Shown: positions 6,165-41,358 of the stretch, piece by piece
How positions within the stretch are numbered: position 1 is the first letter of the stretch
Layout of the letters: every line of letters begins with the position of its first letter
NCBI GenBank assembly: GCA_038208765.1
Contig: JBBQYK010000003.1
Location: 1-41,358, forward strand
Origin: Verrucomicrobiota bacterium
GTDB lineage: Bacteria > Verrucomicrobiota > Verrucomicrobiia > Limisphaerales > SIBH01
Direction: 5' to 3'
Length of the DNA stretch: 41,358 nt
Translations under genes and position numbers: made by a program
The notes under the pieces: generated by a model
Databases searched by the model: none
What the model was told of the DNA's origin: nothing
What the model saw: the letters and a program-made list of their open reading frames with translations, nothing else

Positions 6165-6179
6165 GCCGGAGCCGGATTT

Positions 6180-6292
6180 ACAGAAGGCCACGAAGGAAAC
6201 GAAGACCGGAAATAGCTGAAAAATAAAACCGGCATTGTTCGGGCGTTCACGCTCCCGCCCGCGGCCAGTTTTTTCCCTTCGTTTGCTTCTGT
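6180..6292. repeat. Imperfect inverted repeat between convergent genes (REP-like or bidirectional terminator)
   Basis: ACAGAAGGCCACGAAGGAAA (6180-6199) pairs with TTCCCTTCGTTTGCTTCTGT (6273-6292). It lies between the stops at 6164 and 6308. Confidence 0.55.
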
Positions 6293-6307
6293 GGATCGAA
6301 TGGGCAG

Positions 6308-8584
6308 CTACGGCAAAAACGCGCGGTAGAACCGGTTGCTTTCCACCGCAGGCATGGCGAAGTCCACGCGGCCGGTGGTGTTCGTGAGATCGGCGAGGCG
6401 GGACCAGTTGCTCAGGTCGCCGGAGATTTGCAGTTCCCACACGCCCAGCGGGCCGCCGGTGATGCTCAAGGAAACTTCGCCCGGCACCGTCGCGTTGATG
6501 GAATGGAAAACGAATCCTCCCGTGTAAGCCTCCTGCGTGACTGGCAGGGCTTGTCCCGCCACGAAGACGGTACCGGTGCGCGCGATAAGCCCCCAGTTCG
6601 CGAGCAGGGAATAATCAAAGCTGCCCACGCCCGTGCCGTTGGTAACGGAAGTGAATTGAATCCAGTCGTCCGTGGTCGTCACGTCCCACGCGCAGCCCGC
6701 GCCGGTCGCGATGCTCACGGTGCCGGTGCCGCCGGACGAACCGTGAGCCAGGCTGACCGGCGTCAGCTCGTACGTGCAGCTCGCGCCCGCGCGCTGCGTG
6801 ATAATCAGCGTGGCGCTGTCCACCGTCAGCCAAGCCAGGCGCTCAAGCGGCGCTGGGTTGGCCTCGATCAGGTAGCCCACGGCGTTCGTGCCGTCGCCGC
6901 TGTCCCCCAGCAGTTGAATCCAAGGGTTGGTGTTGTTCACGGTCCAGAGGCAGCCGCTCGCGGCCTGGACGGTGAAGAAATTCGAGTTCGCGCCGGGGCC
7001 GTGCGAGCGGCGCGTGGGCGACAGGGCGTAGGCGCAGAGCACGCCCTGCTGCGCGAGCACGAAGGTCTGCCCGGCGACTTCGAGCAGGCCGGTGCGCGTG
7101 AGGGCCGTGGGATTGGCGGCGAGCGAGTAAGTAATGACGCCGTCGCCCGCACCGTTGCTGCCGGTGAGAAGGTTGATCCACGGATTGGTGTTCACCGCCG
7201 ACCAGGGACACGGCCCGGGCGCGAGCACGGAAATGGTGTCGGTGGCAGGCCCGGATGCGTGGACGCGATCTGTGGGCGAAAGTCCATAGCCGCACACGAC
7301 CGGCTGCTGCGCGACGTTGAAAATTTCCCCGCCCACCACGAGCGCACCGCTGCGCCCGGCGAGCGACTCGTTAGCACTCACGGCATAGGTCACAGTGCCG
7401 TCACCGCTGCCGTCGCCGGAGAGAAGGTTAATCCACGGATTCGTGTTCACCACCGACCACGCGCAGAAATTGCTCGTGGTGATGCTGAAAGAATTCGTGG
7501 TCGAGGCGGCGGTGTGCTCGGCGTTGGTGGACGACAGCGCGTAGGCGCAAGGAAAGGCGTCCTGCAAAATGTTGAACGTCAGCCCGGCGATAACGAGCGT
7601 GCCGGCGCGCGGCGAGGCGGAGAAATTATCCGCGACGGCATAAGCAACCGCGCCATTTCCCGAGCCGCTGGCCCCGGAAAGAATGGTCACCCACGCGTTC
7701 GTGTTGCCCACCGACCAGACGCAGGGATCAGCGGCGAGGACGTTGAACGAATTGGTTTCCGCCCCCGGGCCATGCGAACCGCTGCCAGGCGCGAGCGCGT
7801 AGGTGCAGGTAATTCCTGATTGCGTGACGGTGAAATTCTGCCCCGCGATGACCACCGTGCCGGTGCGCCCGGTGAGATCAGGATGGGCGTCCACGAGGAA
7901 TTCCACCGTCGCGCTGCCCGCGCCGTTCGTGGCGGAGGTGAGGTTGAGCCACGGGTTCGTGTTGACCAGCGACCACGCGCAAACTGGGTGGCTGGCCACA
8001 AGGCTCACAGAGCCGGCACCGCCGACGTCGGAAAAATTCGCCGCGCTGGAACCGAGAGAAAAACCGCACTGCAAAACCACGGACACGCTGGAGCCAACGT
8101 AGGTGGCGGACAACTCGTTGGCGTTTGGATCAGAAATTTCCGTGACGCCCGGCTCGTTCGTGAAGGTGATGGCGCTCACGCCGCCGGTCACGCCCGCCGC
8201 CGGCGTGAAAAAAATGTCGGCGATGAAATTCGTGCCGGCGGGAAAGGTGTTCGTGGTGAAAAAATCGAGGCTCAAGGTCACGCCGAGACGGCCGAAGTTC
8301 GTCGTCTGGTTGGGATTGGGCCTCAGCGTCGCGCCCACGGCCACGGAGTCCGCGCCCGCCGCCGCGTTCACGAACCGCAGCACCGCCGGGTTGTAACCGA
8401 GGTTGAAGCCGAGCGCCTTTTCATCGCCCAGACTTTCCAGCACCACGCGCACGCGCTTCGTCTCGCCGGGCGCCAGGGTCGTGCCTTCGACGCGAATGAC
8501 GCGGCTCGCCGCGTGGCTCGTTGACATCAACAACGTGACCAACAGCAGCGCGCCAATTTTCCAACCGTTCTCCAACCACTTCAT
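6308..8584 (-). CDS. Secreted cohesin-like + 6x BACON-type repeat protein with C-terminal RFYR domain
   Basis: 758 aa with signal peptide (…STSHA/ASR). The N-domain looks cohesin-like (ALGFNLGYNPAVLRF…). Six ~85-aa repeats C-x-Y-x-L-S-P…C-x-W-x-V-x-NTNPW-I…G-x-G-x-V-x-Y…R-x-G-x-L…Q. Ends NRFYRAFLP. The start lies 3 nt after the giant gene's stop. Confidence 0.8.
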   Translation of the reverse strand: MKWLENGWKIGALLLVTLLMSTSHAASRVIRVEGTTLAPGETKRVRVVLESLGDEKALGFNLGYNPAVLRFVNAAAGADSVAVGATLRPNPNQTTNFGRLGVTLSLDFFTTNTFPAGTNFIADIFFTPAAGVTGGVSAITFTNEPGVTEISDPNANELSATYVGSSVSVVLQCGFSLGSSAANFSDVGGAGSVSLVASHPVCAWSLVNTNPWLNLTSATNGAGSATVEFLVDAHPDLTGRTGTVVIAGQNFTVTQSGITCTYALAPGSGSHGPGAETNSFNVLAADPCVWSVGNTNAWVTILSGASGSGNGAVAYAVADNFSASPRAGTLVIAGLTFNILQDAFPCAYALSSTNAEHTAASTTNSFSITTSNFCAWSVVNTNPWINLLSGDGSGDGTVTYAVSANESLAGRSGALVVGGEIFNVAQQPVVCGYGLSPTDRVHASGPATDTISVLAPGPCPWSAVNTNPWINLLTGSNGAGDGVITYSLAANPTALTRTGLLEVAGQTFVLAQQGVLCAYALSPTRRSHGPGANSNFFTVQAASGCLWTVNNTNPWIQLLGDSGDGTNAVGYLIEANPAPLERLAWLTVDSATLIITQRAGASCTYELTPVSLAHGSSGGTGTVSIATGAGCAWDVTTTDDWIQFTSVTNGTGVGSFDYSLLANWGLIARTGTVFVAGQALPVTQEAYTGGFVFHSINATVPGEVSLSITGGPLGVWELQISGDLSNWSRLADLTNTTGRVDFAMPAVESNRFYRAFLP

Positions 8585-8587
8585 GAA

Positions 8588-11500
8588 TCAGTATTCCAAG
8601 ATTTTATAAAACCGCGTGCGTCCGGCGGGCAGGTCTTCCACGGTGGCGTGATATACATCCGAGCGCACCTTGCCGCCAACCTCGCTCCACTTCGCCAGCA
8701 CCTCGCCGTCGAGCCGCGTCCAGGTCTCATCGGCCAGATCGTCCTTGTAATAAACCTCGTAGCTCTTGTGCGTCTGGGCGGTCCATTCGAGCCGCACGGT
8801 GTTCTCCAAAATGGTCAGGCGCGGCGTGATGGCTCCGGTCGCCACAGGCTCCGGCTTGGCGGTGGATCCGCTGTCCGGCGTGAAGGTGATTTGATCCAGC
8901 CAGCCGCGATCCGTGCCGGCGCGGCCGGTGGCGTTCTTGAAATACGTCCAGTCCACAAACTGCGGACCAGCCGAGAGCGGGAACAAAACTTCCTGCCAGT
9001 CCGACTCGCCGGAGATCAGCGCCTCGGTCTGGCCGTTGACCGCGAAGACCAGCACATCGGCATTCGTCTCCGACGACACGCGCCACCAGAAATGCAGCGC
9101 GCCCGGCCCGTCCACGATTGTTTGCAGCGTGGAACTCTGGCCGTCGCCGACCAGTCCGCTGCGCGCCGAGTCGAAGCCATCATGCGTCACGACGGTGTGG
9201 CCTTCCCACAACGAGTGACCATCGGTGAGGAAATCCCACGTCGGCTGATCCACCGCCTCGGCCAGCGAGAGCACGTCATTGACCGTGAGCCGCGCGACCA
9301 GGCTGGTGATGGAACCGGCGGCGTTGCTGACGATGACGGAATAATCTCCGCGCTGCGTGTCGAGCACGTTGAAAATCGTCAGATCATCCGTGGTCGCGCC
9401 GCCGATGTTGCCGCCGTCGCTGAGCCGGTTGGTTTCGTTGAACAGCCAGCGGTAGCTCAATGGCGGAGTGCCGCCCGCCGCCACGGTGAAGTCCACCGTC
9501 TCGCCTTCGTCCACGGTCTGGCTGCCCGGCTGAATCAGGATCGTCGGCGGAGTGCCGGCCACCGGCCCGCCCGTTCCGTAGGTCACACGATCGAGCCATG
9601 CCCGATCTTGTCCGCCCACGCCGCTCGGGCTGCGCGAGTAGCGCCACTGCAATTCATGCGCGCCGGACGGCACTTGAAAACTGACCTGTTGCCAGTCCAC
9701 CTCGCCGGAGATGCGCACCTGATCCGCCGCATCAAGCATGAAGCGGAGATAATCGCTGCCCTCCTGCGTGGAAGTTTTCCACCAGAACGTGAGCGTGCCG
9801 GGTCCGGTGACGTTGGCTTTGATGAACGTGTAAGTGGCATCCGTCATCACGCCGGTCACCGCCGCGTCTTCGCCGTCCGAGGATTCCCCCTGCTGGCCGG
9901 TCCACGCGGGCGCGGTGCCGCCGAGCGTGAAGGTGAGCGCGGTGTTGTCGAGCGCCACCGGAATCGACACGGGTTGCACCAGCGCGAGCGATGCGTTGGC
10001 ACTGATCGCCGTGCCGAGTGTGTTGCTGACGAGCAGAGAGTAATTGCCCACCCGGTCCAACTGCGCATTCGCCACCGTGAGCGTCGGCGTGCCGGAGCCG
10101 CTGATGCCGCCGCCGTCCGCGAGCGGCAACCCGTTGAAACGCCAGCGGTACGTGAGCGTCGCGCTGCCGACGGCCGTGGCGTTGAAGCTGGCGCTCGCGC
10201 CCGCGCTGACGACGCGGTCCGTGGGCTGTGCGGTGATAACTGGGGCGAGCGGGCCGAGGACGACCTCATCCACCCACGCGCGATCCACGCCGCCGGTCAC
10301 GCTGCCATTTTTCAGATATTCCCAGCGCAACGTGTGCGTGCCGGCGGCGATGTGGAAGGCGCGCAACTGCCAGTCCACCGCCCCAGAAATGGCCGCCTGC
10401 TCGTTGCCATCGATCAGGAAACGCAGCCGGTCGTTCGCCGGCTCGCTGGAAACTTTCCACCAGAAGCTCACGGTGTTCAGCCCGGTCACCGTGGTCTGGA
10501 ACCACGCGGATGCGCTGTGCGCCAGCACCGGGCTGCGCGCCGCGTCCACACCGTCGTGCGTGATCGCGCCGTTGCCGATCCAGGTGTTCGCGCCGTTCGT
10601 GGTCCAGTTGAGATTTGTGGTGTCGAGCGCCAGGGCGAGCGTGACATTGGTGAACACCGCGAGCGAAGCATGCGCGCTCGGCACGGTGCCGACCGCGTTG
10701 TTGACGATGACGCGATAGCTGCCGGCGTTGGCGAGTTGCACGCCGGTGAGCGTGAGATTGGAACTCGTCGCGCCGCTGACGCCACCGCCATTGGCGAGCA
10801 GCGTGCCGTTGTAGAGCCATTGATAGGTGAAGGGCGGCGTGCCGCCGGGCGTGACGCGGAAGCTCGTGGTCGCGCCGACATCGACGTTCTGATCCGCCGG
10901 GGGCACGACAATGGACGGCGGCTGCGGGCCGAAGAAGACCTCGTCGAGCCACGCGCGATCCTGTCCGGCGCTGCCGGTGGCATTCTTCAGATACACCCAG
11001 CGGCAAGTCTGGCTGCCGGAACTGAGGGTGAAAGATTGTTGCTGCCAGTCCTGCTCGCCGGAGATGCGCGCCTGCTCCACGCCGTTGATCGTGAAGATCA
11101 GTTTGTCATGCACCGGCTCGCTGGAAACTTTCCACCAGAAGCCGAGGCCGCCCGGGCCGATGATGACCGTCTGCACCATGTTCGAGCCGTTGTTCGCGTT
11201 CGTGCCGCTGCGGGCCGCGTCCGTGCCGTCGTGCGAGACGACTTGCTGCCCGACCCAGGGCGAACTGGTGTTGGTGGCCCAGTTCAAGCCTGCGCCGTCG
11301 AGCGCCGTCGCGAGCGGGACGAGCGGAGTGACACTCAGGAGCGCCCCGTCGCTGGTCACGGCGGATGCGTCGTTCACGACGAGCAGCGCGTAGGTGCCGC
11401 TCTGCGAGGGCTGCACGTTGGAAAGAACCAGCGTGGGCGAAGTCGCGCCGCTGATCTCCGGTCCGTTGGTCAGGTTCACGCCGTTGCGCTGCCAGTAGTA

Positions 11501-31624: not shown

Positions 31625-34564
31625 ATGCGCAACATCATCGCATGGTTGTTCTGCCCTGCGGTCATCGCCACCGCCGCGCCTTCTGCACAGGAGGCGCTCA
31701 AGCAAATGCGCGTGGCCCCTGGCTTCGAGGTGAAACTCGTCGCCAGCGAACCGGACATCCGTCAGCCGGTCACGATGAGCTTCGATGAGCGCGGGCGCAT
31801 CTGGGTCGTGCAGTATTTGCAGTACCCCAATCCCGCCGGGCTGAAGGCGGTGAGCGTGGACCAATATCTCCGCACGAAATACGATCGAGTGCCCGAGCCG
31901 CCGCCGCGCGGGCCGAAGGGCGCGGACAAGATTACCATTTGCGAAGACACCGATGGCGACGGCGCGATGGATAAGTTCAGGGACTTCGTCACCGGATTGA
32001 ATCTCGCTTCGGGCATGGCGCTCGGTCATGGCGGCGTGTTCGTGGCGCAGCCGCCGTATCTGCTCTTCTACGCGGACAAAAATCGCGATGACGTTCCTGA
32101 TGGTGATCCCGAAGTCCTGCTCACCGGCTTCGGCATGGAAGATTCACACGCCTTCGCGAACTCGCTCGTCTGGGGGCCGGACGGCTGGCTCTACGGCGCG
32201 CACGGCAGCACGGTCACGGCGAACATTCGTGGCCTCGAGTTTCAACAAGGCATCTGGCGCTACCATCCGGTCACGCGCGAGTTCGAGCTGTTCGCCGAGG
32301 GTGGCGGCAATACGTGGGGCGTGGACTTCAACGAGGACGGCGAGATCATCGCGGGCACGAACTTCGGCGAGAAGATTGGGCTGCATCAGGTGCAGGGCGC
32401 GTATTACGTGAAAGGTTTTGCCAAGCACGGCCCGCTGCACAATCCGCACAGCTACGGATACTTCGATCACATCCCGATGCGCGGCTTCAAAGGCGGTCAT
32501 GTGACGTGCGGCGGGATTGTTTACCAGGGCGGCGCGTTTCCCGATTCGTTCAACGGCGCTTACGTCGCGGCCAATCTGCTTTCGAGCGCCATCTACTGGC
32601 ACAAGTTGGAACGCGACGGATCGAGTTGGAAGGGCAGCTTCGGCGGCGCGCTGCTGGAGTCGGACGACAGCACGTTTCGTCCAATTGATTGCCTGACCGG
32701 TCCCGATGGCGCGCTCTATGTCGTGGATTGGTGCGACCCGCGTGCGAGCCATGTTGATCCCGTGGACAATTGGGATAAAGCGAGCGGGAGGATCTACAAA
32801 ATCCAGAAAGCAGAAAGCAGAAAGCAGAAAGCGCCAACCTTCGACCTCGCGAAATCTTCCAGCGATGAACTCGTGAACCACCTCACCAATCGCAACGACT
32901 GGTTCCGACGCACCGCGCGCGGGCAACTGGCCGAGCGCCGCGACACAAACATCGTTTCCCGCCTGCGCGGTCTAAGTTTGCAGCGCACGAATCAACCGCT
33001 CGCGCTGCAATCGCTCTGGGCGCTCCAGGTGAGCGGCGGATTCGCTGACGATGTCGCGTCCCAACTTCTATCGCATCCCCACGGACCGGTTCGCGCATGG
33101 ACAGTTCGCCTGCTGGGGGACTCGAAGAAACTTTCGCCCGCCCTGCTTTCACAAGTCGCAGCATTGGCCCGCGCCGAGAAGACCTCCGCCGTGCGCAACC
33201 AACTGGCGTGTTCGGCCAAACGCTGGCCATCGCGCAGTGCGTTGCCAGTGCTTCGTGAACTATTGCGGCGTGATGAGGACGTGAACGATCCGCAGATTCC
33301 GCTGCTGCTCTGGTGGGCCATCGAGCAAAACCTGATGTCTGATCTGAGCGATGGGATCGGTGTGCTGAGTTCGGCGGCGGACTGGCACTTGCCCATGATG
33401 AAGACTCATATCCTCGAGCGCATCGCGCGTCGCGCCGCTTCGGACGCAAGCCGGTCGGCATCTCAGCTCGGCGCGTGGCTGCTCAATGCCGCGCCCGCCC
33501 AAGAGCAGCGCGACGTGGTGTTGCGCGGTTTTGACAAAGCTTGGGAAGGCCAGGGCGTCGTGTCGAATGAGGAAGTGAGGCGTGCTCTCGCCAGAATCTG
33601 GTCACCTGATGACCTCCTGATGATGCGCGTGGGGTTGCGGGTTGGCCTGGAGAGGGCGCAGCAACGGGCGCTCGAATGGGTCGCGGATGATCGCGTGGGC
33701 GAAAGCGGGCGCGTCTCGCTTGCCGAAGCTCTCGGTCAAGCGCGCCTGGAGGCCGCCGTTCCTATTCTCCTCAACTGGCTGGGCGACAACCGCCGTTCTC
33801 TCCGCTACGCGGCCGTGACGGCGCTGCTGAATTTCGACGATCCAAAAATCGCCTCGACGCTCCTCAGTGCTTATCCCGGATTGAACTCGGAGACGAAGGC
33901 GCGCGCACGTTCAGGTCTGGCCGGTCGCGCGAGCTGGTCGATGGAACTGATCCGCGCAGTGGAGGAGAAGAAGTTTGATGAGAAAGAAATCTCGCCCGAT
34001 CTGCTGCGCCAAATGTTGCGGCACCAGGATGCGGCGTTGACCGCAGCGATTGAAAAGCGCTGGGGTAAACTTCAGGCGCAAACCTCGGCCGAGAAGGCCA
34101 GCACGGTGAATCAGCTCAAGTTGGTGTTGAACCCGAGCGGCACCACGCTGCGCTTCCCGGGCGACGCGGCGGCAGGCCAGAAACTCTTCACGCAACTTTG
34201 CGCGAATTGTCATCAGCTCTTTCGTGTGGGGCAGAGCATGGGCCCCGAACTCACCGGTGCGGATCGCAAAAACTCCGAATGGTTGCTGACGCAGATTGTG
34301 GATCCCAGTGCCTTCATTCGCCCCGAGTACGTGAATCACAACGTGGAAATGAAAGATGGACGCGCGCTGACCGGACTCATCGCCGAACAGAGTGACCTGG
34401 CGCTCACGCTGCTCGACGCCCAGAACCAGCGCACCGTTCTGCGACGCGCGGACGTGAAAGAACTGAATGCTTCGGCCATCTCGCTTATGCCGGAAGGTCT
34501 TTTGGAATCACTCACGCCGCAGCAGGTGCGCGACTTGTTCGCGTATCTACAGTCTGCGCCGTGA
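31625..34564 (+). CDS. PVC-type heme-binding CxxCH protein (putative membrane-bound dehydrogenase: beta-propeller, HEAT-like region, cytochrome c)
   Basis: 979 aa. PGFEVKLVASEP..QPV.MSFDERGRIWV start, WGPDGWLYG, FRP…GPDGALYVVDW, CANCH (34199-34213), GPELTG and SLMPEGL match the Planctomycete/Verrucomicrobia family. Confidence 0.9.
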   Translation: MRNIIAWLFCPAVIATAAPSAQEALKQMRVAPGFEVKLVASEPDIRQPVTMSFDERGRIWVVQYLQYPNPAGLKAVSVDQYLRTKYDRVPEPPPRGPKGADKITICEDTDGDGAMDKFRDFVTGLNLASGMALGHGGVFVAQPPYLLFYADKNRDDVPDGDPEVLLTGFGMEDSHAFANSLVWGPDGWLYGAHGSTVTANIRGLEFQQGIWRYHPVTREFELFAEGGGNTWGVDFNEDGEIIAGTNFGEKIGLHQVQGAYYVKGFAKHGPLHNPHSYGYFDHIPMRGFKGGHVTCGGIVYQGGAFPDSFNGAYVAANLLSSAIYWHKLERDGSSWKGSFGGALLESDDSTFRPIDCLTGPDGALYVVDWCDPRASHVDPVDNWDKASGRIYKIQKAESRKQKAPTFDLAKSSSDELVNHLTNRNDWFRRTARGQLAERRDTNIVSRLRGLSLQRTNQPLALQSLWALQVSGGFADDVASQLLSHPHGPVRAWTVRLLGDSKKLSPALLSQVAALARAEKTSAVRNQLACSAKRWPSRSALPVLRELLRRDEDVNDPQIPLLLWWAIEQNLMSDLSDGIGVLSSAADWHLPMMKTHILERIARRAASDASRSASQLGAWLLNAAPAQEQRDVVLRGFDKAWEGQGVVSNEEVRRALARIWSPDDLLMMRVGLRVGLERAQQRALEWVADDRVGESGRVSLAEALGQARLEAAVPILLNWLGDNRRSLRYAAVTALLNFDDPKIASTLLSAYPGLNSETKARARSGLAGRASWSMELIRAVEEKKFDEKEISPDLLRQMLRHQDAALTAAIEKRWGKLQAQTSAEKASTVNQLKLVLNPSGTTLRFPGDAAAGQKLFTQLCANCHQLFRVGQSMGPELTGADRKNSEWLLTQIVDPSAFIRPEYVNHNVEMKDGRALTGLIAEQSDLALTLLDAQNQRTVLRRADVKELNASAISLMPEGLLESLTPQQVRDLFAYLQSAP
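32804..32832 (+). repeat. Heptamer tandem repeat (CAGAAAG)4 inside the CDS
   Basis: CAGAAAG x4 perfect plus C, encoding QKAESRKQKA at the end of the propeller domain. Confidence 0.9.
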
Positions 34565-34749
34565 ACGGAACGTGCCGCCGGTTTGTCACCGGCGGATGAG
34601 GTGCGCGCATTTCCAGGATGCAGAGGCTTGCGAGAACTGATCTCATTTCGCGGCCCCTGCCAGTGGCAAACTGGCAGCACGTTGCGCCGGCCTTGCGCGA
34701 TGTCAGGAAAAGCTTAGGCTGGCGACCAATGACACGCATGTATTCAACG

Positions 34750-35316
34750 ATGACACGCCTGTTGCTCCCCGCGTTGCTCGCGGTGTTGGCGGGATGCCAG
34801 CCGCGCAACTCAACTTCTGTATCAACTCCTGTCGCGCCTATGAAATCCAACGAACCCACGGCCAGTGCCGCCGCGCCTGCTGCGTCAACCGCACCAGCCA
34901 AAGTCGAAAAGACGGAGGAACAGTGGCGCAAGGAACTGACGCCCGAGCAATACCGCGTGCTGCGGGAGGCCGGCACGGAGCGCGCGTTCGGCGCGGCGTA
35001 TGATGAATTCAAGAAGCAGGGCGCGGGCACCTACGTGTGCGGCGGCTGCGGCGCGGAGTTGTTCTCGTCGAAGGAGAAGTTTGATTCGCATTGCGGCTGG
35101 CCGTCCTTCTATGACCCGGCGAATGCGAAGAACGTCATCACGCGCGAGGATAATTCGCTCGGTGGCAAGCGCACGGAAGTTTTGTGCGCGCAGTGCAACG
35201 GGCATCTCGGGCATGTGTTCACGGGCGAAGGTTTTCCCACGCCGACGGACAAACGGTTTTGTATCAACGGCGTGTCGCTGAAGTTCGTGCCGGCGGGCGG
35301 GGCGAAGAAGCCCTGA
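34750..35316 (+). CDS. msrB: Peptide-methionine (R)-S-oxide reductase MsrB, predicted lipoprotein
   Basis: EEQWRKELTPEQYRVLREAGTERAF, two CxxC Zn motifs (CGGC, CAQC), KFDSHCGWPSF, HLGHVF and RFCING. The N-terminus MTRLLLPALLAVLAG/C is a lipobox. Start 34750 is preferred (alternatives 34729/34738). Confidence 0.93.
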   Translation: MTRLLLPALLAVLAGCQPRNSTSVSTPVAPMKSNEPTASAAAPAASTAPAKVEKTEEQWRKELTPEQYRVLREAGTERAFGAAYDEFKKQGAGTYVCGGCGAELFSSKEKFDSHCGWPSFYDPANAKNVITREDNSLGGKRTEVLCAQCNGHLGHVFTGEGFPTPTDKRFCINGVSLKFVPAGGAKKP

Positions 35317-35323
35317 TTGAGAG

Positions 35324-35442
35324 AGTGGGGCAGCCGTCCCGGCTGCCATAGTCCACTGGCCGTCCCGGCTGGTATTTTCCTGATGTTGGATTGGTGAACC
35401 GGCAGGCGAGACGCGCGGCAGCCGGGACGGCTGCCCCACTAC
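35324..35442. repeat. REP/REPIN-like 24-bp perfect inverted repeat downstream of msrB
   Basis: AGTGGGGCAGCCGTCCCGGCTGCC (35324-35347) is the exact reverse complement of GGCAGCCGGGACGGCTGCCCCACT (35417-35440). The right arm reads GTAG-TGGGG… on the minus strand (GTAG REP head). There is a partial inner copy GCCGTCCCGGCTG near 35359. Confidence 0.8.
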
Positions 35443-35460
35443 GATGCGAACCGCGTCACT

Positions 35461-35509
35461 TCACTTCGCCCCGAAAACTTTTTGCAACAGCTCGGTCGTG
35501 CGCGCGGCG
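35461..35509 (-). repeat. Left att-like direct repeat: displaced copy of the DUF4197 gene 3' end
   Basis: The minus strand encodes AARTTELLQKVFGAK*. It is 42/49 nt identical to 39825-39873 (AARTTELLQKVFGTK*). Confidence 0.9.
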
Positions 35510-35513
35510 CAGA

Positions 35514-36413
35514 TCACAACTTGAGTTTTGCAACGAGCGCGGAGCGTAGCTTGCTCAAGCGAGGCCGAATGCGCAGCGTCCGGGTGTTTGATACGAAAGC
35601 GAGTTTGCGATCCAGAGGACGGAGTTCTTTGGTCTCAACTTTTCTGAAGCCGAGCGCGGACATTTCCAATTCGGCTGCTTCTGGGAGAACAGCCGCGCAA
35701 TCCCAACTTGCTGCCACATGCGCCACGAGAGAAAACGACGCGCACTCTGCATCAATTTTGGGTTTGCAGCCCGTTGCCTTGACCAAAGCAGCAAGACCTC
35801 GTTTGAAAGCGCCATCCCCCTCTATCGTCACGAGCGGTTGTTGCTGCAAAATGCACGCCAGATTCTCGTTCGAGACCTTTGGCTTGCGGGTGAACAGCGC
35901 GTATCTCATCACACCGATTGGCGCGCGTGTCAGCGTCTCGAAACTGCTACCATCTCGAACGATGCCGAAATCAACACTGCCGTCGTGGAGCCGCCGCAGT
36001 ATTTCTTCGGTTTGAAGGTTCAAGAACGCAAAACCCGCCTCTGGAAACTCAGCCCTGAGACGATTGCAGCGCGGCAGCACCAACCAGCGCATAATGCTGT
36101 CTCCCGCTGCCACGGTGATTTTCTGAGGCTGGTGAACGCATTCGAGCCGGAAGTCGGACAACGCCGAAAGATGTTCCCGCGCCAAAGCCGCCAGTTCCCT
36201 CCCGGCGCGGGTGAGCACAATTCCGCGCCCGCTTCGCTGCACAAGAGCGGTGCCGAAGAACTCTTCGAGTTCCTTGATCTGCCGGCTGTAAAGGCTCTGC
36301 GCGTTGACATCGCCATTGGCGGCCTTGGTCACTCCACCGGCCTCGGCCACCAGGCAAAAGGTTTGCAACCGTTCGAGTGAGAGGCCGGATTGCTGAAAGA
36401 GTTCGCGAAACAT
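35514..36413 (-). CDS. LysR-family transcriptional regulator
   Basis: 299 aa. N-terminal HTH (LERLQTFCLVAEAGGVTKAA…QSLYSRQIKELEEFFGTALVQRSGRGIVLTRAG) and substrate-binding domain (LHDGSVDFGIV). Confidence 0.9.
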   Translation of the reverse strand: MFRELFQQSGLSLERLQTFCLVAEAGGVTKAANGDVNAQSLYSRQIKELEEFFGTALVQRSGRGIVLTRAGRELAALAREHLSALSDFRLECVHQPQKITVAAGDSIMRWLVLPRCNRLRAEFPEAGFAFLNLQTEEILRRLHDGSVDFGIVRDGSSFETLTRAPIGVMRYALFTRKPKVSNENLACILQQQPLVTIEGDGAFKRGLAALVKATGCKPKIDAECASFSLVAHVAASWDCAAVLPEAAELEMSALGFRKVETKELRPLDRKLAFVSNTRTLRIRPRLSKLRSALVAKLKL

Positions 36414-36505
36414 TACTGGAGAGTCATGCGGCTGATGGTTTTCGATGTAGAACAGTTCACGCGGCTCCGCAATACTCCGGCCAACAAAAGAAAGCGAACA
36501 CGGAA

Positions 36506-38179
36506 ATGTTGACGGAACTACAGTTAGGAAATTTTAAGGCGTTTGCCGAAACGCAGAGAATCCCGATTCGCCCGCTCACCCTGATCTTCGGGCCGAATAG
36601 CGGTGGCAAGTCGAGCATCCTCCACAGCCTCCTGCTCGGGTGCCACGCGATCAAGAGCGGCGAATTGGACGTGCATCAAACCGAGGTCGGCGGTGATGCC
36701 GTGGATTTGGGAGGCTTCCGCCAGTTTGTGCATCGCGGAGACTCAAACAGATGTGTGGAGTGGGGCATTACGCTTGAAACTGCTGGCCTGAGCAAAAAAT
36801 TCGCCGAAGCGTTTTCAGCATTCGAGCAGGTTTCTGTGAAGACTTCGTTTGGTGAATTGGTTGATAGCGAATCCAAACATGACGTGGGCGCACAGAAGTT
36901 TGTCATCGAAACGGACGACAAACATTTCCTTGAAATGGAGTCCGCGCATACTTCGAGTTTCTACAAACTTCATGAACTTCAAACGCCCATGTCAGCACGG
37001 GACTTCACCGCACCGGCGAAGTCGCACCCCGTCACTTTCTGGATTCATGGTGTCAACTTCCACCACCCCCTTGTTCAGAGAGTGCTTAAGGGCACATTCG
37101 CTGAATTCTCGGGCACAAATCTATCGACAAAGGATTTCAACTTGTTGGAGAAGAATTGGGAAGATGTCTGTCACTTGCCGACGTTCATTGAAGGACTAAT
37201 TCCCGAAGCCATAAACGCAAGATTACCGGATTTGAGTGTGCTTTTCCACCCGGTGTCCGCAGGGGGCAGCCGTAAGAAGATGATTGTCAGCGCCGCCCGT
37301 GGCATCATGCACCATTTCCTCGGGAATTTGTTTGAGGAAATGCACAAAGCTATTTCAGACCAACTTGGAAGGGTAATGTATTTAGGGCCGCTTCGCTCCT
37401 ATCCATCTAGGCGCTTGTTGTTTCCACTCGTGCAGACGAACTTCTCAGACGGCAGCTTCGCTTGGCAGGTCATCCGAGAGGAGCCGGCTGTCCGAGCGAA
37501 GATCAATCAGTGGCTGGGCGATGCGAATCGGCTGAACACCACTTTCGAACTGTTGGTTCGAGATTGGTTGGATAGCGATCAAGCTGCGGAGGTCGCAGTC
37601 AAAGCATTGCGTGGCGCAGGCAAACCGGCAGGCCCAAAGAGCCGCGAATTAGTTACGAAAGCGCTCGGCCGACTCGCAGCAAAAATGGGCGAAGGCGTCA
37701 TGGGCGAGGTGTTGCTGAAGGACAAGCGCACGAACACGATCGTTTCGCATCGGGACATTGGCGTTGGAATTTCCCAGGTTCTGCCCATCCTCGTTGCCGC
37801 CCATGCCACGAAGAATCACATCCACGCCATCGAACAGCCGGAACTTCATTTGCACCCGGCGCTTCAAGCAGAACTCGGCGATGTGTTCATCGAATCTGCC
37901 CTTGGTGAACGGAAGAACATCTTCCTGCTGGAAACGCACAGCGAGCACTTGTTGCTGCGGATTATGCGACGGATGCGCGAAACAGCTTCCGGCAAGTTGC
38001 CTAAATCGTGCCTGCCTGTGACGCCCGCAAACGTCGCGCTGCTTTACGTGCAACCGGATGGCGCTAGAAGCATTGTGCGTGAAATCCCGCTGAATGAGCG
38101 CGGCGAACTGCTTAAACGCTGGCCCGGAGGTTTCTTCGAGGAAAGTTTGCGCGAGGTGCTGCCTTCTTATGCTCAGTGA
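36506..38179 (+). CDS. ABC-type AAA ATPase (AAA_15/AAA_21) with C-terminal DUF3696-like tail; Menshen NsnB-like
   Basis: True start is probably ATG 36506 (MLTELQLGNFKAF). Walker A GPNSGGKS, YLGPLR, signature DIGVGISQVLP, Walker B/D-loop IEQPELHLHP, H-loop ETHSEH, and tail GELLKRWPGGFFEE. Confidence 0.85.
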   Translation: MLTELQLGNFKAFAETQRIPIRPLTLIFGPNSGGKSSILHSLLLGCHAIKSGELDVHQTEVGGDAVDLGGFRQFVHRGDSNRCVEWGITLETAGLSKKFAEAFSAFEQVSVKTSFGELVDSESKHDVGAQKFVIETDDKHFLEMESAHTSSFYKLHELQTPMSARDFTAPAKSHPVTFWIHGVNFHHPLVQRVLKGTFAEFSGTNLSTKDFNLLEKNWEDVCHLPTFIEGLIPEAINARLPDLSVLFHPVSAGGSRKKMIVSAARGIMHHFLGNLFEEMHKAISDQLGRVMYLGPLRSYPSRRLLFPLVQTNFSDGSFAWQVIREEPAVRAKINQWLGDANRLNTTFELLVRDWLDSDQAAEVAVKALRGAGKPAGPKSRELVTKALGRLAAKMGEGVMGEVLLKDKRTNTIVSHRDIGVGISQVLPILVAAHATKNHIHAIEQPELHLHPALQAELGDVFIESALGERKNIFLLETHSEHLLLRIMRRMRETASGKLPKSCLPVTPANVALLYVQPDGARSIVREIPLNERGELLKRWPGGFFEESLREVLPSYAQ

Positions 38180-39104
38180 AATCGCAATCATGCCAGAGGC
38201 GTTTCGGAACGATGGCAAACAGCCTCCGGCATCACGGGAGTTTGCGCTCTCGGTGCTCAAGGACTTCTTGCTCGATGCGGCCATTGTGCGCGATCTGTGC
38301 AACGGTGAGTGGACGAAGAAAATGTTCGAGCTTGGGGATCTTCCAACCAGAAAGTTACTCGAAGCATTGAAGGGAAGACTGCATCGGTTTCCCACGGCGC
38401 TGCCGAAGCTGGATCATGAAACGGACGCGGAGTGGTATTGGGAAGCACAAGCGTCCCACGAAAAATCACCGCTTGATGCAATCCTCGTTGCTGATCCTCA
38501 ATCCGCCGATTGGACGGGTGATAAAAAAATCCTCGATCTGATGTCCCTTCCAGCTTCCCGTCTCTGGCAGCAGCGGAATTCCTCAATTCGATTGAGGCGA
38601 CAAACAGATGACTACTTGAAGCTGCTAACGCCGGTGTTCAAGCGTGCAAACTACATCACATTCATTGACCCACACTTGGATGAAAGAGAGCGGGAAGCCC
38701 ACGCGCGTTCTACGTATCGAGAATTCTCAGTGCTCGTGCAACGGATTCCCACTCGCTCAGATGGAGTTGCCGTGCGCCTAGAAATACACATTTGCAAAGG
38801 GGGCGATGCGAGCCGGAGCGACTGGGAAGCGCGTGTGGGAAAATCGGCGCGCGCACTGTTGAAGGCCGGACAAACTGCGGACGTTTTTGTTTGGCCGCTG
38901 AAGTTCCATGATCGGTATCTCATCACCGACCTTCTCGCGCTCAATCTCCCGAATGGATTTGATACTGCCAAGGACGAGCACGAGAAGACGACATGGGCAC
39001 GCCTGACGAGGCACGATGCTGAAGACATCGAAAAAGATTTTGAGGCGAATGGCGCGTGCTTCGGTGTGCCTTGCGTTTTCCAAATTGGAGCCGTGAAACA
39101 ATGA
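38169..39104 (+). CDS. Hypothetical protein with C-terminal PLD-like (MIT_C-type) HDR domain; putative nuclease/effector
   Basis: ATG 38169 overlaps the ATPase stop (11 nt). 311 aa. ITFIDPHL and FHDRYLITD…NGFD motifs resemble the DPY…HDR…G.D pattern of MIT_C/PLD-like domains. Confidence 0.6.
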   Translation: MLSEIAIMPEAFRNDGKQPPASREFALSVLKDFLLDAAIVRDLCNGEWTKKMFELGDLPTRKLLEALKGRLHRFPTALPKLDHETDAEWYWEAQASHEKSPLDAILVADPQSADWTGDKKILDLMSLPASRLWQQRNSSIRLRRQTDDYLKLLTPVFKRANYITFIDPHLDEREREAHARSTYREFSVLVQRIPTRSDGVAVRLEIHICKGGDASRSDWEARVGKSARALLKAGQTADVFVWPLKFHDRYLITDLLALNLPNGFDTAKDEHEKTTWARLTRHDAEDIEKDFEANGACFGVPCVFQIGAVKQ

Positions 39105-39787
39105 ATCACCAAGTTCAACTCCGACTCGCTGCGAAAGCGAGGCGGTTGGCCCGCCTTAAGCAACCGGAGCTGGACAGGCAAAAGGCCGACTACGCGCAGC
39201 TACAGCGCCCTGACTTTTTGTGGCACTACCTGCTTCAAAGCTTTGCCACGATGGGGCGGGCTTCAGGGTGGCGCGGCCTGATCGGTAACAAATCCAACTA
39301 CGACAAACTCCGCTTTGATGTTCTCGCGGAGCTCACGCCAGCCGCGCGCAGCGGTCAGGTCGAAACAACCTGCCGAGCGGCCAAAATCCGAATGCCCGGC
39401 ATCAAAGCCGGATACATCCTCAAGTGCTTTGACCAGGTGCAAGAACTCGGCGGCTTGGAAGCGGCGAAGGCGAAGCTGCTGGCGCAAACAGGACGCGAAG
39501 CCAAGATCGCTTTCCTCAAATCCTTTCGCGGGATTGGCGACAAATATGCCCGCAACATCATGATGGACGTGTACCATCCTGACTTCCGAAACAGCATTGC
39601 GGTAGATGCACGAATCAAAACCCTATCGGAGAAGCTGGGGTTGAGCTTCGGAAGCTACAGAGAGCACGAGGAGTTTTACGTGTCCGTGGCCCGCGAGGCC
39701 GGACTCAATGGTTGGGAATTAGATCGGCTCATTTACAATTTTCAGGCCGAATTTCTGATACTCGCGCACGAATCTAAGGAAAAGTGA
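39101..39787 (+). CDS. HhH-GPD superfamily DNA glycosylase/AP-lyase-like protein (Ogg-like)
   Basis: ATGA overlap with the upstream stop at 39101-39104. 228 aa. HhH LKSFRGIGDKYARNIM with the Lys retained, IAVDARI Asp 21 residues later, and C-terminal ELDRLIY helix. No Fe-S cysteine cluster. Confidence 0.65.
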   Translation: MNHQVQLRLAAKARRLARLKQPELDRQKADYAQLQRPDFLWHYLLQSFATMGRASGWRGLIGNKSNYDKLRFDVLAELTPAARSGQVETTCRAAKIRMPGIKAGYILKCFDQVQELGGLEAAKAKLLAQTGREAKIAFLKSFRGIGDKYARNIMMDVYHPDFRNSIAVDARIKTLSEKLGLSFGSYREHEEFYVSVAREAGLNGWELDRLIYNFQAEFLILAHESKEK

Positions 39788-39824
39788 GGCGGTCGAATTG
39801 TGGTCGGCGGCGGGCCACCAGGCC

Positions 39825-39873
39825 TCACTTCGTGCCGAACACTTTCTGCAACAGTTCCGTGGTGCGCGCGGCG
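39825..39873 (-). repeat. Right att-like direct repeat (current 3' end of the DUF4197 gene)
   Basis: Matches 35461-35509. Identical 12-bp core GTGCGCGCGGCG at 39862-39873 and 35498-35509. Confidence 0.9.
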
Positions 39874-40577
39874 GGGTTCTTGCGGATGCGTTCCTCTTCC
39901 TCGGCGATCATCTTGAACAGGCCGTCACTGGCCTTCTGCGTCACGTATTTGTCCACGTCGAGTGAAGCGATATCGACGTTCAGCCGGCTGAGGTAGGAAC
40001 TCGCGCCACCGCCTTGCGCCAGCAGTTTCTTGTAAGCCGCCGTCACGCCGGCCCTCTCCGTGGCCTGCTTCACGATGGGTGCCATCTTTTCCTGAATCTG
40101 TTTCTCGCCCTTCGTCTTGAAGAACTGCGTCGCGAAATCATTCGTGCCGCTGACCAGCTTCTTCGCGTCCTCGATGGTCATGCTCTTGAGCGTGTCGGTG
40201 AAGATGGGCAGCGCCTCGGGCACGGCGGCTTCGGCAGCGCGGTTCAGGGTGGTCACGAACTCATCGGCGTATTGATCCTGCTTCATGGCGCGCAACGTCT
40301 TCTCCACGGTCTGCAATTTCTCCGGCATGGGAATCTTCACCTTCGGATTGGCGAGGAAGCCGTCGGGCTTGGCGAGATTGGTGATGGCGCTGGAGACGCC
40401 CTTACCGAGCGCCTGCTTCAAGGCTTCCGCGACTTGATCCTGCGAAAGACCGGCGAGCGAGGGCAGTGCGGCGGTGGTGACACTCGTGGAATTAGTTTTC
40501 GGTTTCAGAAAATCCAGTAGCGCGGCCTGCGTGGAACTGGCGAGAGCGAGAACAACGAGAAGCGCCATGAGTTTCAT
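39825..40577 (-). CDS. DUF4197 family exported protein
   Basis: Start ATG 40577 (MKLMALLVVLALASSTQA signal). ALKQALGKG…DGFLANPKVKIPMP, LNRAAEAA, DGLFKMIAEEEERIRKNPAARTTELLQKVF are typical of DUF4197. Confidence 0.9.
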   Translation of the reverse strand: MKLMALLVVLALASSTQAALLDFLKPKTNSTSVTTAALPSLAGLSQDQVAEALKQALGKGVSSAITNLAKPDGFLANPKVKIPMPEKLQTVEKTLRAMKQDQYADEFVTTLNRAAEAAVPEALPIFTDTLKSMTIEDAKKLVSGTNDFATQFFKTKGEKQIQEKMAPIVKQATERAGVTAAYKKLLAQGGGASSYLSRLNVDIASLDVDKYVTQKASDGLFKMIAEEEERIRKNPAARTTELLQKVFGTK

Positions 40578-40623
40578 GGGCGGACGGTAGCGAGAGCAAA
40601 GCGGAGAGTCAAAGTGAGCGCGG

Positions 40624-40720
40624 CGTCTTGGAGTGCGCCGGCAGAGCGGAGTGACGACGGCGCTTTTGAGCGGAAGAAGACGCCACGCCGTGGCCGCGTG
40701 CCGCTCTGCGCGGCACGACG
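40624..40720. repeat. Degenerate REP-like inverted pair (GGAGTGCG…CGCTTTT family)
   Basis: TTGGAGTGCGCCGGCAGAGCGGAGTGACGACGGCGCTTTT, then a partly complementary CGCCGTGGCCGCGTGCCGCTCTGCGCGGCAC. Shares its ends with 24824-24855. Confidence 0.55.
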
Positions 40721-40732
40721 CGTTCCACCACT

Positions 40733-41358
40733 TCAATTCACCGGCACGGAAAACTTCAGCGACAGCTTTTCCTCGCCCCGATAATTCCGCCCGCTGTAAC
40801 GCACGTCGATCTTCGTGCCGCTGTCGCGCACCTGCACGTAGCCGAAGCAGCCTTCGCCGGGCACCGGCTTGTACACACCCTGGCTGTACGGCCCGCCCTT
40901 GATGGATGCATCTTGATCCAGCGGCGCACCCGCCAGCACCGGGATGCGCGGGCCGCCGCCGGTCGTGTAATCGCTGTGCGTGCCGTCATCCGCTGCCAGG
41001 CTGTGCGCGTCGCCGTGCAGGATGACAAGGCCGGTGATCTTTTCGTCGCGAATGAAGTTCGCGATCTCCCGCCGCTCCTCCGCGAACGCACCCCAGAAAT
41101 CCGCGCTGCTGAAAAAGCTGCGACTCTGCTCCGCCAGCGCCGGGTCGCGCGCGAACTGCCACGCGTTCGTCTGATGAATGAACCCCGTGACGTGATCGCG
41201 AATGGGATAATAGTTCGCCCCCGCCGTGCCAATCCACGGCACCGAACTCACCCACACGATGAGCGGATACTGGCCCTTCGCCGCGCGCAGTTCGTTCTTG
41301 AACCACGCCTTCTGCGCTGCGCCGAGCATGGATTTTCCCGGGCCGTCCGGCTGTTCCA
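40733..41358 (-). CDS. Alkaline phosphatase D (PhoD-like) family metallophosphoesterase, C-terminal part; 5' end outside the window
   Basis: The frame is open to the window edge. SMLGAAQKAWFKNEL, VWVSSVPW, DFWGAFAEERREI and LHGDAH are PhoD-family motifs. Confidence 0.75.
   Translation of the reverse strand, partial: EQPDGPGKSMLGAAQKAWFKNELRAAKGQYPLIVWVSSVPWIGTAGANYYPIRDHVTGFIHQTNAWQFARDPALAEQSRSFFSSADFWGAFAEERREIANFIRDEKITGLVILHGDAHSLAADDGTHSDYTTGGGPRIPVLAGAPLDQDASIKGGPYSQGVYKPVPGEGCFGYVQVRDSGTKIDVRYSGRNYRGEEKLSLKFSVPVN

Follow-up and report, generated by a model that had tools for sequence, protein, structure and literature searches.

A duplicated DUF4197 gene end beside a defence-type cassette in a Verrucomicrobiota genome is probably a recombination scar

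Does a duplicated gene end beside a block of lower-GC genes mark the attachment sites of a site-specific mobile element, or was it left behind by recombination that brought in an allele together with its neighbours? This question is raised by a locus of Verrucomicrobiota bacterium (NCBI GenBank assembly GCA_038208765.1, contig JBBQYK010000003.1, forward strand). We analysed a stretch of 41,358 nucleotides, positions 1 to 41,358 of that contig, referred to as the window. In it, four genes lie between two copies of the 3' end of a gene for a DUF4197 protein. A preliminary description of the window had taken this region for an integrase-less islet inserted in the DUF4197 gene, held the gene to be an attB-like hotspot, placed the crossover in a 12-bp core common to both copies, and read the copy that now terminates the gene as a recoded replacement end carried in by the element. 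Of the readings considered here, the one best supported by the results treats the feature as the scar of ordinary recombination, with no new kind of mobile element involved.

The duplication itself is present as the preliminary description gave it, in its coordinates, its seven differences, its 12-bp core and the lower GC of the intervening DNA. A repeat search and direct reading identified a 49-nt direct repeat at 35461-35509 and 39825-39873, with the two copies 4364 nt apart and identical at 42 of 49 positions (86%). The right copy comprises the final 15 codons, the stop codon and one further base of the DUF4197 gene, and the left copy stops 4 nt short of the stop codon (35514-35516) of a gene for a LysR-family regulator. 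At the inner, gene-proximal edge of both copies 12 nt are identical (35498-35509 and 39862-39873), which is the longest exact identity between them. The copies match each other with an E-value of 3.6e-05 in a blastn-short search of the whole 4.95-Mb assembly, and the same search found no third copy in that assembly. GC content in 400-nt windows is 0.48-0.59 between the copies (35600-39799), compared with 0.55-0.67 to the left and 0.60-0.67 to the right. Logan unitigs of sequencing run X1 extend across both junctions (35414-35584 on the left, 39771-39891 on the right) with 0 differences; run X1 is probably the source sample, so this support is not independent.

Relatives have the site in an empty state, confirming that the stretch between the copies is an insertion relative to them, as had been proposed from the window. 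In three species of the same genus (G005, G004 and G009) msrB and the DUF4197 gene are convergent and 119-158 nt apart. The closest relative, metagenome contig L135, whose proteins are 98% (msrB), 96% (PhoD) and 94% (DUF7133) identical to those of the window, has an empty site too. The alignment of the window with L135 breaks off exactly at 35509 and restarts exactly at 39825; a single stretch of 49 nt in L135 is the counterpart of both copies. The left copy matches the single gene end of L135 at 47 of 49 positions and the right copy at 40 of 49, while the right copy matches the gene end of another species, G009, at 46 of 49. Among the 20 relatives read, all of which encode the conserved tail AARTT(E/D/Q)LL, 18 end in VFGAK before the stop codon, as does the left copy; the right copy encodes VFGTK, with a threonine that occurs in none of the 20. 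The left copy (35461..35509, minus strand) is a displaced native gene end, a remnant comprising the last 15 codons, the stop and one base, with which the alignment of the left flank ends. The right copy, by its match to G009, is to all appearances foreign.

Six of the seven differences between the copies are synonymous third-position changes and the seventh exchanges alanine and threonine. When seven substitutions were drawn at random 50,000 times, 1.8 were synonymous on average, and the probability of six or more was 0.0008. Such a surplus of synonymous differences is what would result if both copies had been working gene ends in two different lineages, and the sequences point to exactly that; together with the matches of one copy to L135 and of the other to G009, it bears out the earlier view that both ends were translated under selection in different lineages.

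The left junction of the foreign DNA is sharp. It begins at 35510, with the four nucleotides (35510..35513) that precede the LysR stop codon, and homology both to L135 and to the body of the DUF4197 gene is lost abruptly after 35509. At the other end of the cargo, a foreign spacer of 37 nt (39788..39824) separates the last cargo gene, which encodes a DNA-glycosylase-like protein, from the DUF4197 stop codon. The alignment with L135 begins only at 39825, and the spacer has no similarity to the DNA downstream of DUF4197 in any relative read.

What separates a carried-in gene end from an exchanged gene is the remainder of the DUF4197 gene and the DNA beyond it. The gene (39825..40577, minus strand; PF13852, E-value 3e-70) starts with an ATG at 40577-40575, encodes a signal peptide and is probably an imported allele. 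Over its whole length it is 90.5% identical in nucleotides to that of L135, compared with 97.4% for msrB, 96.5-98.8% for the left flank at 33128-35127 and 98-100% at 40725-41024, to the right of the proposed import. Divergence varies along the gene. The first 37 nt (39825-39861) are 75.7% identical between window and L135 and 91.9% between window and G009. In the segment 39874-40064 the window is equally distant from L135 and from G005 (92.1% each), and these two are 91.1% identical to each other. The middle of the gene (40065-40424) is 96.4% identical between window and L135 and 94.7% between window and G008, and at its 5' end (40425-40595) identity between window and L135 falls to 80.7%, with L135 and G008 91.8% identical. 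In a tree of the gene built without the 49 nt, the window and L135 pair with a support of only 55/62, and the terminal branches of the two (0.052 and 0.049) match in length the branch of G008 (0.051), a member of another species.

Upstream of the allele a gene is missing. Homology of the DUF4197 region to L135 extends about 20 nt beyond the start codon at 40577 and is then lost, leaving about 97 nt (40597..40693) without an L135 counterpart at the place where relatives carry a gene for a 209-aa phosphatase; the alignment puts the right junction near 40693/40694. In L135 this gene, of the DSP/PTP type (PF22741, PF03162), lies at 9277-9903 on the plus strand between DUF4197 and PhoD. It was found in six of the seven relatives' loci searched (L135, G004, G008, G009, G007 and L136, not G002), and the G005 locus ends too early to show it. 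The gene is gone from the window, and the rest of the genome, in an assembly that is 88.5% complete, has only a paralogue of 25% identity. The native right flank then follows with the gene for a PhoD-like phosphatase (40733..41329, minus strand; PF09423, E-value 3.5e-10). The right junction near 40694 falls at a conserved hairpin downstream of PhoD, and no donor-type tract is visible to the right of it.

For a site-specific element the DNA outside both repeats should be that of the recipient. Here the left side is native, and the right side is at between-species divergence and lacks a neighbouring gene. These results do not sit well with a crossover in the 12-bp core and a recoded end borne by the element. 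Since the whole DUF4197 gene is diverged and the phosphatase gene is missing, the supposed replacement end is most simply the end of an entire imported allele.

We think it probable that about 5.2 kb (35510 to ~40693), made up of the cassette and a foreign DUF4197 allele, took the place of about 1.6 kb of native DNA, that the left copy is a remnant of what was replaced, and that homology-facilitated illegitimate recombination (HFIR) fits this exchange. The incoming DNA would have come from another lineage of the same genus and would have carried the four-gene defence-type cassette, the 37-nt spacer, the complete foreign DUF4197 allele and the ~97 nt upstream of that allele. Its right end would have been joined by homology, in or next to the conserved PhoD terminator region, and its left end illegitimately, inside the native DUF4197 gene 49 nt before the stop. 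Displaced in the process would have been the native DUF4197 gene except for its last 49 nt, along with the adjoining DSP/PTP phosphatase gene, so that the right copy would be merely the end of the imported allele and the left copy a native leftover. One import of this kind explains three adjoining differences between near-identical genomes, namely the cassette, the diverged allele and the missing gene, and we infer a single event. Published HFIR products are insertions coupled with deletions (PMC3240628); at this locus 5.2 kb stands in place of ~1.6 kb, and the abrupt end of homology between 35509 and 35510 makes one joint without homology. The proposed import does not need a recombinase. As for the enzymes that may have been responsible, a Ku gene adjoins a gene for an ATP-dependent ligase on contig C13 of the genome (24457-26451), and a second ATP-dependent ligase open reading frame (ORF), of 964 aa, is present on C109.

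Several observations weigh against this import. None of the genomes and contigs searched has the donor arrangement it calls for, a cassette beside a DUF4197 gene that ends in FGTK and a stop codon, with the phosphatase gene absent. Several 400-nt windows in the left 10 kb are only 92-94% identical to L135, so the window is mosaic relative to L135 elsewhere too, and this mosaicism leaves room for a separate recombination event as the source of the diverged DUF4197 patch. The 96.4% identity to L135 at 40065-40424 is only slightly above between-species values, and the middle of the gene discriminates poorly because it is conserved in all species. There are 0 mismatches to L135 in 39862-39919, as a switch at the 12-nt block would give. 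Immediately to the right of 40694 the window is 98-100% L135-like, and no long homologous anchor from a diverged donor is visible. Finally, by the account in PMC3240628, HFIR has been demonstrated in only a few transformable species.

Site-specific integration would instead make the islet a 4,364-bp unit resembling a cis-mobilizable element (CIME) or a satellite mobilised in trans, whose attP carried the recoded DUF4197 end and crossed over in the 12-nt block, its integrase being since lost or encoded elsewhere. We consider this unlikely, even with the repeat laid out like a classical attL and attR, its identity block at the gene-proximal edge, the donor-type differences confined to the first 37 nt and followed by 58 nt without a mismatch to L135, and a threonine in the right copy that is not seen in any of the 20 native ends. 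Integrase-less elements flanked by att sites are known (PMC5704250), and five tyrosine-recombinase matches lie on other contigs of the genome, from where such enzymes could act in trans; none of the five was linked to this site. The preliminary description was right that the islet has no recombinase: none of the four cargo proteins is one by Pfam or Foldseek, and the contig contains neither a relic nor any match to PF00589 or PF00239. That the core lies only 4 nt from the LysR stop codon also counts against this reading. No attP-like copy was found near an integrase, the sole 16-nt exact matches lying inside unrelated coding sequence on C175 and C32. The contigs of run X1 contain no joints of an excised circle or an empty site, but since contigs drop rare variants this weighs neither for nor against.

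Nor did we find the site used a second time. Among 401 genomes of the order, the window alone has two gene-end copies on one contig; the DUF4197 gene-end pattern has 0 matches in viral contigs; and no second gene-end copy is present in the genus-level loci read. A candidate second case, G769, was rejected, its two pattern matches belonging to two contigs that are 90% identical over 2.5 kb and not to a displaced copy. The same cassette was found at unrelated loci in four other genomes (G482, G529, G016 and G015), on contigs with no PF00589 match, and a comparison of its ends by eye across the loci found no common conserved sequence. Both the proposed attB-like hotspot and the notion of an element specific to DUF4197 thus lose their footing. 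It is unlikely, in our estimate, that the 49-nt repeat is a real attL and attR pair, that a 4.4-kb four-gene unit was moved in trans by a recombinase from elsewhere, and that the recoded end served to keep DUF4197 intact; under that reading the diverged DUF4197 body and the lost phosphatase gene become two extra, separate events in neighbouring DNA.

A duplication made without a recombinase at the 12-nt block, with the gene body native throughout, might have arisen from a break at codon 16 from the end that was repaired by copying from a donor and end-joining, or from a single crossover of a circularised donor fragment carrying the 49 nt. Either route would explain why the edge of the duplication coincides with the switch between donor and recipient sequence, the genome has Ku and LigD-type ligases, and in Escherichia coli single crossovers of circularised DNA gave duplications of 109-950 bp in 56 of 60 clones (PMC3240628). 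RecA would, however, have a very poor substrate in a repeat of 49 nt that is 86% identical and has no exact block longer than 12 nt, and the diverged DUF4197 body and the missing phosphatase gene would be left as coincidences, so we hold this origin to be improbable as well. The occupied state might also be ancestral, the relatives having lost the islet by precise recombination between the copies, and the single copy of L135 does combine the 37 nt of the left copy with the core, as a deletion through the core would leave. Against this stand the four empty relatives at different distances, the cargo GC below that of the flanks, and the failure to find the cassette in other members of the genus; the islet would have to have been lost precisely more than once, and we regard the chance of this as very slight. 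Slighter still is the chance of a decayed DUF4197 paralogue whose end survives as the left copy, of a target-site duplication or of an assembly artefact, for which nothing speaks beyond the repeat itself. The preliminary description had named the paralogue and the artefact as possible refutations of its own reading, and both are contradicted: L135 has one gene, the native flank runs directly into the left copy, the genome contains no other DUF4197-like sequence, and unitigs span both junctions of copies that share only 12 nt of exact identity. A target-site duplication would begin with two identical copies, whereas here 9 positions differ from L135 in the right copy, which is functional, and 2 in the left copy, which is not.

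Comparison with known processes sets the proposed import in context. HFIR as described in PMC3240628 likewise couples a foreign insertion to a deletion in the recipient and joins one end abruptly without homology. Its other joint lies within homology, and the right junction here may be of that kind. It differs in that the insertion here is 5.2 kb, against the roughly 1 kb stated in that source, in that the anchor here is not visible as a donor tract, and in being a process without demonstration in this phylum. Displaced 3' ends are known from arrays at type VI secretion system (T6SS) and Rhs loci, for which HFIR is a proposed mechanism (PMC5361080). At such T6SS effector-immunity, Rhs and contact-dependent inhibition (CDI) loci an incoming module with part of a homologous gene replaces the resident one and pushes the old 3' remnant downstream, with no integrase, much as proposed for the window; unlike those cases, the gene concerned here does not encode a polymorphic toxin but is a single-copy one for a periplasmic DUF4197 protein, a defence-type cassette forms the cargo, and there is just one remnant at the locus. 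CIMEs (PMC5704250), like the islet, have no integrase and hold a small cargo flanked by direct repeats in which the 3' end of a protein-coding gene is included. At this locus, however, there is no sign of excision, of a cognate integrase or of another element using the site, and the DNA outside the right repeat is probably not native.

Small cargo beside duplicated gene pieces is seen at three other loci too. In G529, the 3' end of a DUF1553 gene (3725-3787 of locus L064, on contig G529:C14) recurs 688 nt downstream at 4413-4475 as a frameshifted fragment that abuts the glycosylase-like gene of the cassette; an ORF for a Phd/YefM-type antitoxin lies between the DUF1553 copies, and the whole insert splits a DUF1553-DUF1501 gene pair. 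In G016 (locus L063, contig G016:C67), an MNT-HepT pair and a 5' fragment of uvrB are found on both sides of the cassette with 75-87% identity (63-1126, 4621-5435 and 6178-6371), and a third uvrB 5' end begins an intact gene; the locus looks like a serial displacement array. A genome-wide screen for diverged direct repeats in the genome of the window gave 138 candidate pairs. ORFs were annotated at 6 of 18 selected pairs, most of which look like paralogue or domain repeats, and only the pair on contig C283 (L129) resembles the case described here. It is a 123-nt direct repeat (2000-2122 and 5514-5636), 93.5% identical with one amino-acid change, that represents the N-terminal part of a gene for a secreted protein and flanks 3.4 kb with DUF3644 and Fic/DOC genes. 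The left copy belongs to a truncated gene fragment whose signal peptide differs, and the orthologue in G004 showed no empty site. If the recombination reading of the window holds, the candidate remnants at these three other loci suggest that such exchange may be common.

The cargo begins with the gene for the LysR-family transcription regulator (35514..36413, minus strand), which has both the HTH_1 domain (PF00126, E-value 2.2e-14) and the LysR substrate-binding domain (PF03466, E-value 1.3e-15) and is divergent from the gene that follows. That gene (36377..38179, plus strand) encodes an NsnB-like ABC/AAA_15 ATPase with a C-terminal DUF3696 (PF13175, PF13304, PF12476). The coordinates given are those of the longest ORF; relatives align from residue 38-48 onward, and translation probably begins some 30-40 codons into it. 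Its best PADLOC matches are PDC-M55A (1.3e-43), NsnB (9.6e-41) and HEC-03B (1.1e-36). The LysR gene is linked to the ATPase gene in G482, G529, G016, G015 and L115 as well.

The third gene (38190..39104, plus strand) encodes a protein of 304 aa that is a candidate NsnC-like effector, with a C-terminal nuclease fold like that of phospholipase D (PLD) in a predicted structure of pLDDT 88.4. It has no match in Pfam, PADLOC or NCBIfam. Foldseek matches it to PLD3/4, Nuc, NgoAVII, BfiI, SauUSI and MITD1. We found 294 homologues of about 310 aa, and residues H240, D241 and R242 are invariant, forming an H-D-R motif also known from those NsnC effectors of Menshen that belong to the PB-PLD1 class (PMC12065111).

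The fourth gene (39101..39787, plus strand) encodes a protein resembling Ogg2-type DNA glycosylases of the HhH-GPD fold. Its predicted structure (pLDDT 94.9) has MjOgg (3knt/3fhf) as best Foldseek match, with TM-scores of 0.68-0.76 to MjOgg, TmOgg and SsOgg; the protein has a PDB profile match to 3fhg (E-value 0.0077) and no Pfam match at an E-value of 0.01. K145 and D166 are invariant in 26 sequences and are predicted by their position to be catalytic, K145 as the lysine of the helix-hairpin-helix. The ATG of this gene overlaps the TGA of the PLD-like gene in an ATGA at 39101-39104, which suggests that the two are translationally coupled. Linkage of the glycosylase-like gene to the cassette is seen in the window, G482, G529 and L115 (4 of the 6 loci) and not in G016 or G015, and only 3 of the 58 reference-genome loci with homologues of it have the ATPase gene nearby. 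In Thiomicrorhabdus cannonii (L085, 9289-9930) a different PLD-like nuclease (PF13091, PF09565) is encoded directly upstream of a glycosylase-like homologue.

The gene set is predicted from family resemblance to be a defence system, and the cargo would be a member or variant of a known defence family. In the Menshen system NsnABC (PMC12065111), an ABC ATPase with a DUF3696 tail precedes the effector NsnC, which consists of an N-terminal inactive-PIN-like domain and a C-terminal nuclease; in the PB-PLD1 class this nuclease is PLD-like and has an HDR motif. The islet resembles Menshen in its ATPase and, through the C-terminal PLD-like fold and the HDR motif, in its candidate effector. Unlike Menshen, it has no NsnA (ParB-DUF262) among its four proteins by Pfam and PADLOC, and so the cargo is not a canonical Menshen system. 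It also differs in having the divergent LysR regulator and, as at the other glycosylase-bearing cassette loci, the Ogg2-like glycosylase gene; the words 'glycosylase' and 'LysR' have 0 occurrences in the main text of PMC12065111.

Outside the import, a palindromic element resembling repetitive extragenic palindromic sequences (REP) or miniature inverted-repeat transposable elements (MITE) lies between msrB and the remnant (35324..35440), with perfect inverted arms of 24 nt. Dozens of complete or half copies occur elsewhere in this genome, and G005 and G004 have the element at the corresponding place in their empty sites; it is native. Farther to the left, positions 31925-33127 of the window are 82-94% identical to L135, with indels of 19 and 32 nt inside the gene for a DUF7133/HEAT/cytochrome c protein. 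The rest of the left 10 kb is mostly 96-100% identical, and a patch of this kind amid such identity means that both genomes are mosaics. The interval between DUF4197 and DUF7133 is variable across the genus: in G007 (L037, G007:C297, 1078-8833) two giant genes for Ig-domain surface proteins (882 and 1759 aa) take the place of msrB, and on contigs L137 and L140 DUF4197 and DUF7133 are directly adjacent.

When a gene end recurs beside low-GC cargo as a short duplicate with synonymous differences, the arrangement resembles att sites, and may instead be the scar of a swap of allele and cargo. Comparing the body of the gene, and the gene next to it, with a very close relative separates the two readings. 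The cargo is of some interest in its own right, since its Menshen-like pair of ATPase and PLD nuclease lacks the ParB-DUF262 sensor that normally goes with such a pair, and has a LysR regulator and an Ogg2-like glycosylase linked to it instead. Should the recombination reading be correct, defence cassettes in these soil Verrucomicrobia would move between related genomes together with neighbouring core genes, and would do so without a recombinase of their own.

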